A stretch of 64,000 nucleotides of DNA from assembly GCA_964016885.1 (NCBI GenBank), contig CAXHJY010000750.1, forward strand, positions 43,801 to 107,800, given 5' to 3'. Below are positions 9,819 through 59,605 of this stretch, piece after piece. The translations under genes were made by a program, and so were the position numbers. The notes under the pieces were generated by a model, which saw only the letters and a program-made list of their open reading frames with translations, was not told the origin of the DNA and ran no database searches. The DNA comes from Eledone cirrhosa. Taxonomy: Eukaryota. Each line of letters begins with the position of its first letter. The first letter of the stretch is position 1.

Positions 9819-10339
9819 AGTGGAAGGTTAGTAAAATCGAAGCTTTGGCTGTGGCTAAGCAAAGTCAACCTACAATAGGAATGAGTTAGCAAAGCACTCA
9901 ATAAGGGTAGGTCCTTAGAGTAATAACATACGTATAAATACCTTGACAAATTGAACATTGCGGTAGGCAAAACCCAACCACACAATACCAAAGTAACGAA
10001 AGAACTAACAAGTTAAATATATATATATATATATTAATAATTATTTGCTTAATTAATTTTTTCATAGAGCCACACCGTCGAAGCTAGCCACACTCATATA
10101 TGGATCTGTGACTATGTTTAAATATATACATATATATTCTTATGAATTTATTTTATACTCCCTTTCAGTTGAGTAAACCTTAGGCGGAAACTAACTGCTC
10201 CTTCTAGCAGTGAGCCTACCTGCCATCCGGCCTACTCTTCACACCCTTCTACTTTGACCGCTAGCCACGTGATGCTTTTCACCCCATTTTAATTCATTTC
10301 TGGCGGCGATCACTGTAGAAATGTTAGTCCTACCGAGGG

Positions 10340-10427
10340 AGTCTCTTGAGAAGCTCGAAGCCTCATGGATAATACCAGGATTGGACATATCCACAAAGTA
10401 CAAGCGAAACTATCGATAGTCGGGACT
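10340..10427 (+). ncRNA. Type I hammerhead ribozyme, U3-A8 core variant
   Basis: Stem I AGTCTC/GGGACT; core TTGAGAA; stem II GCTCG..CAAGC (one mismatch); GAAA; palindromic stem III CTATCGATAG; GTC cleavage triplet ending 10421. Confidence 0.75.
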
Positions 10428-10461
10428 AGAAGAACTTTGGTAAAGTTTATATACATTTTTT

Positions 10462-10712
10462 CTTCAAACTTGCAATTTAGACTTAGCTCCGTTTAATTGA
10501 TTATTTGTCTAGTTAGTTTCTACGGGCTAAGAGAAAGACTAGGTAAATTTTATCTGACTGTTCCTCACAGAGGATAGTCGGTGACATTTATCTGTTATTT
10601 CTTCAAAGTTAAATTCTAAACTTAACTCCGTTTAAATGATTATTTATCTAGTTGATTTCTACGGACTAAGGAGAAGAACAATTGGATATATTTTGTCTGA
10701 CTGGTCTTCAAA
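10462..10712. repeat. Imperfect ~139-bp tandem duplication
   Basis: CTTCAAA..AATT.TA.ACTTA.CTCCGTTTAA.TGATTATTT.TCTAGTT..TTTCTACGG.CTAAG...TCTGACTG occurs at about 10462 and 10601. Confidence 0.75.
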
Positions 10713-12039
10713 CTTATAATTTTATAAATATATATATATATATATATATATATATATATATATATATATATATATATATATATATACCGTTACCTGAGTG
10801 TGATTACGTATTACGAAAGAATGAACCCTCGATGTGTAAATACGCGCGTACACACATACAGACAGACACGCACACACAGATACACACACACATATATATA
10901 AAGCATATAACCTAAAATAATGTTCTAAGGGCCTTATTTTGTATGAGTTTGGAGGGCGTGAAGTGGTAGTGTGTAAGAGAATGAGAAGGGAAAATTCTAA
11001 CCAGCAATTGAAACTACTCTGCAAATTCAACACTATGGGAACTTTTGTCTTAATCTACAGCGCTCACCACCGTGAGAATTGTAATATATTGGTTCTGCTC
11101 CATTCAAGGCAATGTTTGATGTCTACGTTTGAAGTTTTACTTCATTGTTATAACAATAGTTTAAATGGAATGGTCTTAGGAACAATGGCACGTGTGTTAA
11201 TTGTACTACTATTCGTGCTTTTAGACTTGACTAGTCCTGCAGTTCAAATGGACGGTTTGAAAATAAAAAGAACGAAAGAAAAAGTAAAGAAAAAGAAATC
11301 TGCTGTATTTGCCTATCACTAATTCTTCATAGGAATAATATACTCGATCGTTTAGAGAACTATAATATGTAACTGTAATTATAGGCGAATGATAGAGACT
11401 GTACTGTTAGTTTAACATTAAAAACCTTTCATCCACAATTATCTCGTCTATTTACTTGTCACAGTGGACCCAGTACTATAATATTCAATGTGTTCTTCTT
11501 TTTTAAGGCGATAGGGTGTGATTTGAAGGAGATTAATATACTGTTTCTAGCTGGGTGAACAACCACGTAGAGGCTTCTCCGTCAGATCACCTAGAAATGA
11601 TGAAATGAATTCTCCATCGGTTTCGATGAGGTGCATTCAGTTGTTTGATTATTTGCACTTCCAACTCGTGAATTAACGATTAAATTGTTGCATATTCCCC
11701 TGATGTATCGAGCCTTAACATAATTCTCAAGTCGAATCAGCATGACACAATTTGTGACAAGGCTGGTCATTTGAATTACAGGTACAGTCCATCCCTCTAC
11801 TTAATTTCACTGATAAAGCTTAGGTTGACTCGAGCCTATGGCAGATATGTAAACTCTTCCCATCCGACGGAGAGATCTCCTACACTTTGGGGTGGGTGAG
11901 AGTTGTCTTCGTTTGTGAAAATGGTTATAGCTTTCATTATGTAAAATCTCCCATTTTGCCTCATTTCTCCCAGTTTTAGGGCACCTTTTTTCCTGGTACT
12001 CCCCGTTTGTGATTTTAGTGGTTGGTAGGTCTGCTATGG

Positions 12040-12132
12040 TAAAAACACTTGCCCAAGATATCACACAGTGAGATCGAACCCAGGATCTCATGATTGTGAA
12101 GCAAGCATCTTAACCACCCAGCCATGCTTGCG
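12040..12132 (-). mobile_element. tRNA-derived SINE head
   Basis: Reverse strand TGGCTGGGTGGTTAAG (A box), GGGTTCGATCTC (B box), then CTTGGGCAAGTG. Confidence 0.7.
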
Positions 12133-12419
12133 TTCTATCAATAGCAATCACTAAACTATGTAAATTTGGTTAATCTGTAATTCCTAAGCGTAGAAAATAA
12201 TACATGAAGTAGTATCGATAATTTCATAAATACAACTATAATGTATAATAAATTTAAAAAAAAAGATATAGAGCTCTTAACTCCTGATAGAGTCGTAGGG
12301 GTGCTGTCCTGAAACACGGCGTGTTTTGGGCGTTTTAAACATGGCAGAGCCCATCTTTCTTTATGTCGGAAAGCATCCAATTTCTTCTAAAGAAAGAAAG
12401 AAAGAGAGAGAAAATGAAA

Positions 12420-12590
12420 ATCGACCCAGTACTAGACTCGACTGGTATTTTATTTGTTGACATCGAAAGGATGAAAGGCAAAAATCCACCTCGGCGGGAT
12501 TTAAACACAGGGTGCAGTGAACGAGAACAAATAGCGATGTAGTTTTGATCCGACATCTTAACGTCTCCGCCAATTGGCTGCCTTACGATA
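12420..12590 (-). mobile_element. SINE copy
   Basis: Reverse complement of the 7790-7975 family (ACTGGTATTTTATT..GAAAGGATGAAAGGCAAA). Confidence 0.7.
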
Positions 12591-57360: not shown

Positions 57361-57712
57361 ATATTGTTATACTTGAGGAGGGTCATATTTGTGTAATATT
57401 GCCAGAATTAATAACAGAACACACTCACTGTTTGGTTGGTTTTACAATGCAACGGGAGGAAACAATAGCACCACTGACGATGTTGCAGATGTGCAACGAA
57501 AGAACTTTAATAAACTATATATATGTGTTTGTGTCTATATTGTATCTGTATTATTTTTGACCGTTGGTCAGTCAATGGCAACATTGAGGACCGAATAAAT
57601 TAGATTACCGATATAAAAGACACAGAAGCGAAAGCGAAAACCAACCAAACAGTGAGTGTGTTCTGTTATTAATTCTGGCAATATTACACAAATATGACCC
57701 TCCCTAAGTATA
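57361..57712. mobile_element. Inverted-end insertion sharing the Penelope 3' terminus, with degenerate hammerhead
   Basis: ~75-bp inverted arms 57368-57443 / 57637-57712 ending ATGACCCTCC..AAGTATA; CTGACGA T GTTGCA GATG TGCAAC GAAA GAAC TT at 57474-57507 lacks a paired stem I. Confidence 0.75.
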
Positions 57713-58074
57713 TATAAATATATATATATATATATATATATATATATATATATATATATATATATATATGTATATATATATCATGTAGGTATCTCTTTAA
57801 GACAGTCATTGTGACTTTCTCTCTTTTTGCCCTTCTCCAGCTCTCCAACAAATTATAATGTCTTCTCCATGAAGGCCCTACACTAAACATCACACTATAC
57901 TATTCTTCACGACATCAGTGCAATCCATCACTAGTTTCTTCGTACTATTTCTCAACTTAAGTTGCCTTCGACTAAGGTGTTGAAATAAAGCAGCTGCCTT
58001 AGCACAGACGACTGTTGAAACTATGACTGGCAAATTTTGTGCAGCTGGTATAGGGCATCATTATGGTGGTGCTA

Positions 58075-58225
58075 TATGACAGCGAATTGGAAAAGTCGCT
58101 AGATCCTCGGCTAGAATGATTTTCAGTAATCGTACGCTCAGAGTTCAAATGCTGCCAAGGTCAACTTTGCCTTTCATCGTTTTGAGTTGGATAAATAAAG
58201 ACCCTATTTAATACTAAAATCGATT
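58075..58225 (+). mobile_element. SINE copy
   Basis: GAGTTCAAATGCTGCCAAGGTCAACTTTGCCTTTCATC. Confidence 0.72.
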
Positions 58226-58844
58226 TACTTTCTGTATCTATGTTCAGATCCGGAGAAGGATGGGCTTCGGTATGACACGGCGACACACCTATACTCCTTT
58301 AGGAGTTGTGGGTCCATGATATGATTATATGACATTTTTACGTAGAAAGAAATGATTAATCTATTGGTGGTTCCGGTCCATAATGATTCATTTTTTTCTT
58401 CCTTGTTTGGAAATGTTTTCTTCATCACTGTTCAATGTGTTCACACGATGGTTCTTGATGAAGCTGTGGCGTCGGGATCGCTGTTGTAACCCACGTTAAG
58501 TTATTTCATAAAACGACTTTTGAATCAGTATATGATCGAGGTGAAATGTCAGGCTAGGCAACTTAATTTTCTGCAATATGTTGCTCATTTCTCTAAGACA
58601 TGTAGTATGGCCGCTTGAAGAGTTAGGTGAATACTGCTATTTCTTTTATATTGGTTCTGTATACTTTATGGTTTACATTCAAAGTTCCTTGTCAGATTTA
58701 TCCACTGGCTCGTTTTTTATATGTGCATGCTTGCATATATATATATTTTTTTTTTTTGACGATCGACTTTCGTCAAATCGGACCGAGGAAACAATGTTTC
58801 CGTTGGTCTTTCCAATTGCTAATACTATCTATCGGTCGCAACTC

Positions 58845-58962
58845 CAGGTAGGAGCAACGTGAAATAAAGTGTCTTGCTCAAGGACATAACGCATCGCCTG
58901 GTCCAGTAATCGAACTCACAACCTTACGATTGCGAATCCAATTCTCTAACCACTCAACCACA
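58845..58962 (-). mobile_element. tRNA-derived SINE head
   Basis: Reverse strand TGGTTGAGTGGTTAG (A box), GAGTTCGATT (B box), GTCCTTGAGCAAGACACTTTATTTCACGTTGCTCC. Confidence 0.75.
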
Positions 58963-58977
58963 TATAGTTATATATAT

Positions 58978-59605
58978 ATCAAGATAAATTAACGGAGCCA
59001 TAGACTCTCGTTATTCCCTGTAAAGTTGTGCTCAAAGGAAAAGGAATCCTGAGCTCTTTAAAATACAATATGTAGAAAGGGTAACACACTATAGAGAGAA
59101 AGAAAGAGAGAGAGAGAGAGAGAGAGAGAGAGAGAGAGAGAGAGAGAGAGAGAGACAGAGAGAGAGAGAGAGAGAGAGCATGTGCCATCAATAAAACAGG
59201 GAAACCACGAGTGTATGGAATCTATAACCTATGGAAGGCAGGGTAGACACACATTAATAACAAATATAAATTAAAATGCGCATACACACCTCTATAACTA
59301 TATAACAGACACGTACAAATCCAAAGAGATCTGTTTCGCCAAGAAATTATTGACTGAAATGGAGGCGCCTATGGGTCATCAGCGTGTGTAAGGCAAATAC
59401 ATTCCAGACAACTCTAAGAAAATACAAGATAACCGTCCTGCAACACGCGGCAGAGAGATGTGACAGGGTGCATAGGACAGTGAACCAGTGGTATCTGAGG
59501 GACGAGCTCCTAGAAACAGCAGCCCAATCCCTGTTTTATTGATGGCACACGCTCTATCTCTCTCTCTCTCTATAGTGTGTTACCCTTTCTACATATTGTA
59601 TTTTA
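58978..59605. mobile_element. Head-to-head inverted insertion with hammerhead
   Basis: Inverted arms 59059-59202 / 59528-59605 (internal GA run differs in length); left arm extended about 80 bp to a TA run. Confidence 0.8.
59309..59387 (-). ncRNA. Type I hammerhead with full-length stem III
   Basis: Reverse strand ACACG CTGATGA CCCA..TGGC GAAA CAGATC loop GATTTG TA CGTGT; C-C mismatch at the base of stem II. Confidence 0.72.

Follow-up and report, generated by a model that had tools for sequence, protein, structure and literature searches.

How the protein of a Penelope-like element (PLE) recognises its RNA, and why PLEs carry an optional tail, are questions on which a hairpin in 64,000 nucleotides of Eledone cirrhosa DNA (contig CAXHJY010000750.1, positions 43,801 to 107,800; hereafter the window) bears. 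According to PMC11167929, reverse transcription of a Poseidon PLE starts in vitro at two internal sites bounding the tail, and RNA binding was narrowed only to a 172-nt region. The original prediction for the window was that a linear motif, TYGAGY(V)C, inside the long terminus of unrelated families is a cis recognition signal for the PLE reverse transcriptase (RT) and endonuclease (EN). In this study, we show that the structured motif exceeds chance in the window, whereas the linear motif alone is not shown to do so.

All ten 8-mers claimed are present at the exact coordinates and strands given. Each of them faces a TA tract, with 44-99 nt to the next (TA)4 run (n=10); at 25840 degenerate TA begins 26 nt away. 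All ten motif-bearing ends adjoin TA runs, as in the (TA)n insertion of the Hydra clade. The list had been picked by hand, however, and its orientation fails over all TYGAGY sites: among the 72 in the window, a TA junction within 100 nt lies ahead of 16 and behind 20. After collapsing families the counts are 13 toward and 12 away (p 0.5), and the strand enrichment looked for over all TA junctions of the window is not there. The strict TYGAGYVC gave 8 toward and 8 away raw, and 7 against 2 collapsed (p 0.09); seven of its "away" sites are copies of one 600-bp family. Nor does the consensus hold at all sites, since TTGAGCAA at 41861 departs from it. The families are unrelated in 44 of 45 pairs, which lack clear homology (next z 4.8, AT-rich), but 23941 and 38860 belong to one family (z 23.9). 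With tails defined by foldback asymmetry alone, T[CT]GAG[CT] is the best of all 6-mer patterns, present in five of six tails; an equally good best pattern arose 142 times in 1000 shuffles and 72 times in 1000 samples of background (p 0.07-0.14, corrected post hoc; not significant). The linear motif alone is therefore not shown to go beyond chance in the window.

The TGTTG..CAACA hairpin said to follow several motifs occurs at 38894-38910 and 46311-46329, but in only two of ten downstream regions. With downstream stability at z < -2 in four of ten, it was rejected as a general second element; it is possibly a non-conserved second hairpin. At 23941 we noted a stem related to it.

The following elements host the sites or serve for comparison; the tail is the long end minus the short end of an asymmetric foldback.

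23553..23603, plus strand: type I hammerhead whose variant core differs at one base; it precedes the 23670 hairpin; found by eye, missed by the descriptor.
25734..25870, plus strand: mini foldback element; the short end is shared as far as 25809, and 25810-25870 form the tail.
38473..38928, plus strand: foldback element with a hammerhead per arm, cores 38565 (minus) and 38740 (plus); tail about 38844-38928.
39377..41511, minus strand: PLE with RT and GIY-YIG, 5'-truncated and broken; hammerhead 39576; no bulged hairpin at the visible 3' end.
41771..44217, minus strand: tandem and inverted 591-bp pLTR-like units; long end 41771, short end 44217; U3-A8 hammerheads at 42086, 42677, 43479 and 44070.
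45527..46339, plus strand: foldback element with a hammerhead per arm, 45622 (minus) and 46148 (plus); tail 46246-46339.
46456..46716, minus strand: hammerhead to TA end; core 46711, cut at about 46609.
57322..57712, no strand assigned: foldback family A, a counterexample; 46-nt tail without the motif, terminus shared with the RT-EN PLE.
58980..59603, minus strand: foldback element; hammerhead 59382, short end 59603, tail 59058-58980.

Five motif families are asymmetric foldbacks, one of them also tandem, which agrees with the tandem or inverted pLTRs and optional one-end tail of PLEs. The motif lies inside the tail of five of the six asymmetric foldback families; tails measure 61-158 nt in the motif families and 46 nt in family A, and thus exceed the 30-40 nt of a PLE tail. 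A same-strand type I hammerhead in the terminal repeat, as PLEs have it, is found upstream in six of nine independent motif families (9894, 21644 and 25840 are short pieces without a hammerhead). Counted over the hammerhead-bearing families, the motif stands 3' of a same-strand hammerhead in 6 of 12; in the remaining six no motif precedes the TA end, and among these are family A, with its visible tail, and the one RT-EN element.

No motif-bearing family has an ORF for RT plus GIY-YIG. The RT-EN coding stretch at 39811-41501 is the only one in the window. Because the family to which it belongs is without the hairpin at its visible end, the partner enzyme is absent from the window. Hydra-clade proteins are marked by a DKT motif, a CxCX5C linker and an EN that lacks CCHH. 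By eye, the short CX4CxxC linker of the window's RT-EN resembles the Nematis rows of the alignment in PMC8557442; a regex scan gave no Hydra EN-type motifs, and the RT-EN peptides found no match in the supplement of PMC8557442. A coding origin of the motif was considered and rejected: tblastn of 151 PLE relatives matched significantly only at 39.8-41.5 kb, none of the 151 proteins matched the motif regions at E<0.1, and the translated motif regions share no residue beyond the trivial one from GAG.

In the predicted fold, the motif is the 3' strand of a bulged hairpin with the layout RYTC, upper stem, loop, upper stem, TY bulge, GAGY. The predicted hairpins are as follows.

9894..9921, minus strand: bulged hairpin pairing ACTC with GAGT, upper stem of 5 bp, TT bulge; the piece is 197 bp long, flanked by TA and without hammerhead.
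21644..21669, minus strand: bulged hairpin pairing ACTC with GAGT, upper stem of 4 bp, TT bulge; in a piece without hammerhead.
23630..23677, plus strand: bulged hairpin pairing GCTC with GAGC, upper stem of 2 bp followed by a mismatch, TC bulge.
23939..23966, minus strand: decayed hairpin in a relative of the 38860 family, with the lower 5' strand broken but the motif and upper stem retained.
25810..25847, plus strand: bulged hairpin pairing GCTC with GAGC, upper stem of 3 bp, TT bulge; 0 nt past the short end.
38846..38867, plus strand: bulged hairpin pairing ATTC with GAGT through one G.U, upper stem of 3 bp, TC bulge; about 2 nt past the short end; rival fold in the MFE.
38894..38910, plus strand: second, downstream TGTTG..CAACA hairpin.
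41861..41923, minus strand: bulged hairpin, CTC/GAG, basal A.C mismatch, 3-bp upper stem, long inner arm; 5 nt past the short end.
42450-42516 (minus), 43640-43706 (plus) and, mutated, 43041-43107 (minus): copies of the 41861 hairpin.
46250..46291, plus strand: bulged hairpin pairing ACTC with GAGT, upper stem of 2 bp, TC bulge; 4 nt past the short end; weakest fold, with competing alternatives.
46311..46329, plus strand: second, downstream TGTTG..CAACA hairpin; region z -3.2.
46513..46548, minus strand: bulged hairpin pairing ATTC with GAGT, upper stem of 4 bp, TT bulge; G.U occurs in both stems.
59028..59054, minus strand: bulged hairpin pairing GCTC with GAGC, upper stem of 4 bp, TT bulge; 4 nt past the short end.

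With an upper stem of at least 2 bp, the hairpin is found at 8 of 10 motif sites as compared to 7 of 50 other de-duplicated TYGAGY sites (Fisher 8.8e-5); with at least 3 bp, at 6 of 10 and 2 of 50. None of 2000 upstream shuffles matched the observed count. Descriptor thresholds and alignment ranges were fixed after the sites had been seen; sites picked by position only, with a relaxed 3-bp lower stem and an upper stem of at least 3 bp, gave 7 of 13 against 6 of 48 (p 0.0036). The strict descriptor is failed by 23941 and 41861. Across nine aligned sites 91% of the cells pair and 14 cells are changed on both sides, values equalled by 0 of 500 shuffles, and controls slid along the sequence pair in 16-54%. 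Changes at motif position 6 are matched by changes at a base 14-55 nt farther upstream. RNAalifold recovers the identical stem. Sites left out one at a time come 1-2 of 85,078 in rank if structure is included, as against 3-39 with the linear matrix. A bulge of 2 nt stands out near TA (8/24; 0 nt 3/24, 1 nt 2/20, 3 nt 1/14; base rate 57/485). A covariance-model search of the window returned only the training copies and the 23939 hairpin, the best distinct non-training match (16.6 bits, E 0.3); the next matches reached at most 12.3 bits. Rfam gave no match at gathering score in the window, and only weak unrelated matches (E 0.13-4) in two regions holding three hairpins; an Rfam scan by E-value was discarded, swamped by TA tracts matching miRNA families. 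The MFE fold differs from the hairpin at 38860, 46284 and the short 23670 fragment. Strand polarity is weak: the sense strand is more stable at 8 of 10 sites by small margins, and three G.U pairs favour it, whereas at 41861 the A.C turns into G.U when the opposite strand is read.

The hairpin base keeps a nearly constant position relative to the short end. In all five motif-bearing foldback families it follows the short end by 0-5 nt, with offsets of 2, 4, 4, 5 and 0 nt and a product p of 1.5e-5. The distance from base to motif, by contrast, ranges over 14-55 nt. The 16 nt preceding the stem are 69-100% A+T.

Outside the window, the same hairpin was recognised by eye in three of six published Hydra-clade PLE consensi, from coral and sea cucumber (PMC8557442 supplement): complete in Hydra-2_Amil and Hydra-2_Ajap, and twice in the 5' pLTR of Hydra-1_Ajap. 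The full hairpin is missing from the other three, Amil1 having the linear motif only, Crog a degenerate form and Obim the short end only. By eye, it is in none of 30 Naiad 3' ends of that supplement, and the Poseidon template figure has no GAGY hairpin. The bulged hairpin was not found in the papers searched on the subject, and the main text of PMC8557442 does not contain the word "hairpin". A cis signal at PLE termini, as originally predicted, is thus supported by the foldback tails (5/6), the hammerhead families (6/12) and the Hydra-clade consensi, but the signal consists of a covarying bulged hairpin, with its 5' base held to the short end, instead of a linear motif spaced regularly from the long end.

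On the basis of sequence, we see about an even chance that the hairpin in the TA-targeting PLE tail anchors the RT-endonuclease on RNA and sets the start of copying before the stem or 37-92 nt after it. The PLE protein would read the invariant UC/GA pairs and the UY bulge, and the endonuclease would nick (TA)n. The freed 3' end could then pair with the A/U-rich stretch 5' of the stem or, alternatively, with the RNA end beyond the second hairpin, and prime reverse transcription. Copying that began just before the stem would give the short end, and copying from 37-92 nt after it the long end; two such starts on opposite target strands would yield an asymmetric foldback. As an RNA anchor the hairpin would set internal RT initiation and hence the PLE "tail", and non-coding families would retain it to borrow a Hydra-clade-type enzyme in trans. 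More tentatively, it may be a clade-wide RNA recognition element of Hydra-type PLEs from corals and sea cucumbers to this genome, a UY- or UA-bulged stem bound by the RT-endonuclease that sets both starts.

The same geometry, with a stop 0-5 nt before the stem, is predicted if the hairpin acts in single-stranded DNA (first-strand cDNA or the displaced sense strand), where it would stall fold-back synthesis or direct a GIY-YIG cut at its base to produce the short end. Such a role fits with the tail being credited to EN-mediated resolution (PMC8557442), with the tail being required in D. virilis for EN recognition of plasmid DNA (PMC11167929), with self-priming at palindromes as argued in PMC3846280, and with the A.C of 41861, which favours the antisense strand. 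We nevertheless consider it rather unlikely: at 25086-25210 a short-ended copy (a relative of the 38473..38928 element) stands alone, with no long arm as its partner, Hydra-1_Obim copies end at one site without a pLTR, the three G.U pairs favour the sense strand and the hammerheads lie on that strand, and internal RT starts account for the Poseidon tail in vitro (PMC11167929). A cut at the stem base would also yield a short 3' end if the hairpin served the processing, stability or folding of the RNA (as a host nuclease site, as protection of the 3' end or as an insulator of hammerhead folding) and no PLE protein read it. It does lie about 30-90 nt 3' of the hammerhead cut where both are seen (farther in the 59382 element), but paired bases that do not vary and a bulge of constant size (2 nt) hint at a specific binding partner, and its presence in Hydra-clade but not Naiad ends, in overlapping phyla, makes this improbable.

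The wording of the prediction also allowed for a linear double-stranded DNA site, the pseudo-palindrome GAGYRCTC present at several sites, or for a promoter element such as pLTRs carry. Covariation of position 6 with the distant upstream base, a position fixed by the stem base instead of the motif, and the missing strand enrichment of the linear motif render either very improbable. Least credence of all goes to a chance pattern picked by eye in AT-rich termini, or to residual coding conservation of the PLE N-terminus. The linear motif is indeed not significant once corrected, but structure, covariation, short-end offset and external recurrence played no part in the original choice of sites; the motif regions match no PLE protein, GAG never becomes GAA, and the Hydra-1_Ajap hairpins lie upstream of the apparent ATG (by eye).

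If the hairpin is indeed an RNA anchor of the RT-endonuclease, a clade-wide element would explain the long-puzzling PLE tail, and also how many unrelated non-coding hammerhead elements hijack one enzyme. A covarying hairpin of 20-60 nt with its base at the short end provides an exact substrate, and mutants, for binding and priming assays, and a search model linking non-coding hammerhead repeats to their autonomous partner. Since PLE RTs are the sister group of telomerase, an RNA element bounding the template is of evolutionary interest.

LINEs share 3' stem-loops with their partner SINEs, and in these as in the R2 3'UTR the RT of the element recognises a conserved 3' RNA structure. The mark of such a retrotransposon 3' stem-loop, a secondary structure that is conserved and covaries, is present here too, and those structures are likewise borrowed by non-autonomous partners. 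They differ in that each is close to just one 3' end and initiation takes place past the structure, whereas the window hairpin has one terminus upstream of it and its conserved bases in stem and bulge. In the single-stranded DNA transposon system IS200/IS605, an HUH transposase reads subterminal hairpins, which are also imperfect with unpaired bases and have the element end a few nt from the base; the context here is one of hammerheads and PLE architecture.

Poseidon of Anolis carolinensis, in the available part of PMC11167929, has an optional extension on one of two inverted ends, 3' of a type I hammerhead, as well as AT-rich targets, two 3' ends and structured RNA near the starts. Its tail is 30-40 nt and coding, starts lie in an AC-rich stem-loop, and no conserved cross-family determinant is reported there; window tails are about 60-160 nt, apparently non-coding, and open with a sequence-conserved bulged hairpin. 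The non-LTR retrozymes, in the available parts of PMC7229834 and bioRxiv 2026.07.22.740005, are repeats with a type I hammerhead and no coding sequence, presumably mobilised by PLEs, and no shared cis hairpin is reported there. Unlike their tandem 170-400 nt monomers with canonical type I hammerheads, most window families are dispersed, 5'-truncated foldbacks in (TA)n, and only the 591-bp family is tandem. As compared to the Hydra-clade PLEs (PMC8557442), the window hairpin families are without coding sequence, but they share with this clade the (TA)n targeting, the hammerhead near the 3' end and, in three of six consensi by eye, the hairpin itself.

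The window consists of AT-rich, animal-type DNA, possibly of a cephalopod, in which short repeats lie between very long degenerate (TA)n tracts. Type I hammerheads are present on both strands; descriptor and core scans, together with two half-hammerheads and one variant-core hammerhead added by eye, give 12 families in total when 45396 is treated as separate from its relative 46148. A single element with reverse transcriptase and GIY-YIG endonuclease (RT-EN) is found at 39377-41511 on the minus strand, broken and 5'-truncated. Self-BLAST of the window reveals six foldback families with unequal arms, matching the inverted-copy-plus-tail arrangement of Penelope-like elements (PLEs) described in PMC8557442. 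At 21748-21878 and 46745-46878, a TA-terminated segment of 135 bp is joined head to head to a different hammerhead-bearing sequence each time, which may reflect two-template insertions. Further features are:

3793-4593 (-): further decayed ORF
8400-8800 (+): presumably a mariner-like transposase remnant, judged from its translation
10346 (+); 42086, 42677 (-); 43479, 44070 (+): U3-A8 hammerhead cores, two families
53216-54283 (+): LINE-type reverse transcriptase fragment (Pfam RVT_1)

The original prediction held that a linear motif, TYGAGY(V)C, lies inside the long terminus of unrelated families, always directed toward the TA boundary, as a cis signal for the PLE enzyme. All ten flagged 8-mers are exact, and 44 of 45 site pairs show no clear homology, the sites at 23941 and 38860 belonging to the same family. 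The uniform orientation is an effect of selection: TYGAGY occurs 72 times in the window, and within 100 nt of all TA junctions 16 sites point toward and 20 away from TA (13 versus 12 after family collapse), the strict 8-mer giving 8 versus 8 raw and 7 versus 2 collapsed (p 0.09). In six tails (long end minus short end) defined by asymmetry alone, TYGAGY tops all 6-mer patterns (5/6); an equally good best pattern arose in 142/1000 shuffles and 72/1000 background samples. By the prediction's own test the linear motif fails to be established in the window. The observation is confirmed in part and its interpretation partly supported, in the sharper form of a bulged hairpin.

The hairpin pattern was derived from Hydra-clade consensi before being applied to the window. 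Six such consensi in the supplement of PMC8557442 show, for coral and sea cucumber, the motif close to the ends of PLEs, hinting at structure. The layout is RYTC, upper stem, loop, upper stem, 2-nt bulge and GAGY. The descriptor required a 4-bp lower stem containing no more than one G.U and a span of up to 60 nt; 12 duplicate copies were excluded, and thresholds were fixed after the flagged sites had been viewed. An upper stem of 2 bp or more was found at 8/10 flagged versus 7/50 other sites (p 8.8e-5), of 3 bp at 6/10 versus 2/50 and of 4 bp at 4/10 versus 0/50. None of 2000 upstream shuffles matched the counts at any of these lengths. The strict descriptor misses 23941, which is decayed, and 41861, which has A.C at the base. 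A relaxed test (3-bp lower stem, sites picked by position only) gave 7/13 versus 6/48 for upper stems of at least 3 bp (p 0.0036) and 9/13 versus 18/48 for 2 bp (p 0.042).

Nine sites, 23941 being omitted, were cut down to their hairpins before MAFFT alignment; since this trimming adapts the alignment to the structure, the covariation counts are biased toward it. Paired cells amount to 91.4%, with two-sided changes at five of eight pairs (14 cells). This pairing was matched in 0/500 shuffles, and slid controls pair at 16-54%; the number of pairs with two-sided change, taken alone, is less striking (34/500 shuffles). A stem-base switch from A-U to G-C (5 versus 3 sequences) accounts for the second Y of the linear motif. 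RNAalifold recovers the identical stem; at 38860 and 46284 the lowest-energy fold differs from the predicted hairpin. In leave-one-out searches with structure every site ranked 1 or 2 of 85,078 positions, with one recurring false match at 8709, as compared to ranks 3-39 with an 8-mer matrix. A covariance model recovered the omitted tenth site as best distinct new match and, in the window, no other above 12.3 bits. Perfectly paired hairpins whose upper stem has 4 bp occur only at three flagged sites across the window, so such structures are rare by chance. The hairpin is very probably a real conserved feature.

In TA-targeting PLE-type elements the bulged hairpin is a marker of the short end, and Hydra-clade PLEs from other phyla carry it as well. 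In short/long arm alignments of five motif-bearing foldback families its base lies 2, 4, 4, 5 and 0 nt past the last shared base, the short-end point at 38860 being blurred by TA microhomology; if placement within the tail were uniform, these offsets would have a product probability of 1.5e-5. From this base to the motif the distance is 14-55 nt, so it is the structure rather than the word that is positioned. The 16 nt preceding the base are 69-100% A+T. GAGY precedes the long end by 27-92 nt, or by 37-92 nt without 25840, whose long end was taken as the start of degenerate TA. A stable second hairpin exists in 4/10 regions; the TGTTG..CAACA hairpin said to follow several motifs is present in 2/10.

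In a mini foldback (51716-51851) of the 591-bp family of terminal-repeat-like units, the short-end arm is joined to only the terminal 70 nt of the long tail; this insert lacks the hairpin, as expected after 5' truncation. The long ends at 9820, 21598, 46456 and 59617 carry an ACCT/ACTCC-like pyrimidine word directly before TA, as does Hydra-2_Ajap.

For a Poseidon PLE, PMC11167929 shows reverse transcription starting at two internal RNA sites bounding the tail and a predicted protein dimer. In our model, to which we give an even chance, the bulged stem would anchor the PLE protein, and nicked (TA)n would prime at the A/U-rich stretch preceding the stem or, alternatively, at the long end past it. 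A less likely alternative is that a single-stranded DNA roadblock or an endonuclease cut at the stem base makes the short end; the single-stranded DNA reading predicts the same geometry as RNA anchoring. The polarity of the hairpin leans weakly to the sense strand: three G.U pairs speak for it and one A.C against. Still less likely are readings of the hairpin as a processing element, a linear site or a chance pattern.

No motif before a TA end was found in 6/12 hammerhead families, and the 10346 family, with two tandem 139-nt repeats downstream, lacks the bulged hairpin. All three copies of the RT-EN element end at one point, where the related family A (a foldback at 57322..57712) runs on into its tail, so that the element's own tail may be unseen. 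GAGY is absent from the visible family A tail. The RT-EN linker resembles Nematis, which places the enzyme for the hairpin families outside the window. The RT-EN PLE and family A have a different conserved terminus in common (25-nt alignment, z 7.7), which suggests a second, Nematis-type end signal:

20605-20638, 23827-23857, 39377-39413, 25237-25282, 57368-57419, 57661-57712: terminus common to the RT-EN PLE and family A

The family A tail (57346-57374, -) begins with a 5-bp stem, TC bulge and GACA, possibly a variant of the bulged hairpin; its 7-mer TTCGACA also occurs in the Poseidon template figure, a weak match that could be chance. One pair of families stands tail to tail over a TA tract at two places, 23827-23960 and 38850-39413 (about 25 and 440 nt TA). 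A 600-bp TA-inserted family, which may resemble an RTE 5' region, has seven copies, 96-99.8% identical; one of their ends is fixed, whereas the opposite end shows nested truncations:

26159-26760, 31056-31657, 36436-36814, 37752-38337, 44617-45041, 49979-50579, 55465-56036: 600-bp family copies

Near the fixed end lies an ACTC/GAGT hairpin that has no bulge, with a pairing probability close to 0.98 in most copies; its TCGAGTAC is directed away from TA.

Outside the window, records were compared by eye, unscripted. Among the six Hydra consensi in PMC8557442, full hairpins stand about 34 nt before the 3' end in Hydra-2_Amil and Hydra-2_Ajap. Two occur within the first 90 nt of Hydra-1_Ajap, before the apparent ATG, the first starting 2 nt into the 5' terminal repeat (pLTR); TA is among the Ajap bulges. 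In Hydra-1_Amil the linear motif is partially paired and in Hydra-1_Crog the form is degenerate; Hydra-1_Obim, whose consensus stops 36 nt past the cut, has no hairpin. In 30 of about 54 Naiad records (last 130-210 nt), the hairpin was seen in 0/30 3' ends and TYGAGY in 6/30, about the chance number. The Naiad and Chlamys matches listed for six exact 8-mers, covering 21 of 22 places, are internal; line breaks may conceal further ones. Several Hydra-clade hammerheads also have ACTC/GAGT as stem III, four pairs identical to the hairpin lower stem (46250-46259). The portions of the literature searched, a scope outside subscription journals and Repbase reports, hold no description of the bulged hairpin, which is apparently undescribed. 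It belongs to a known kind, the 3' cis structures of retroelements.
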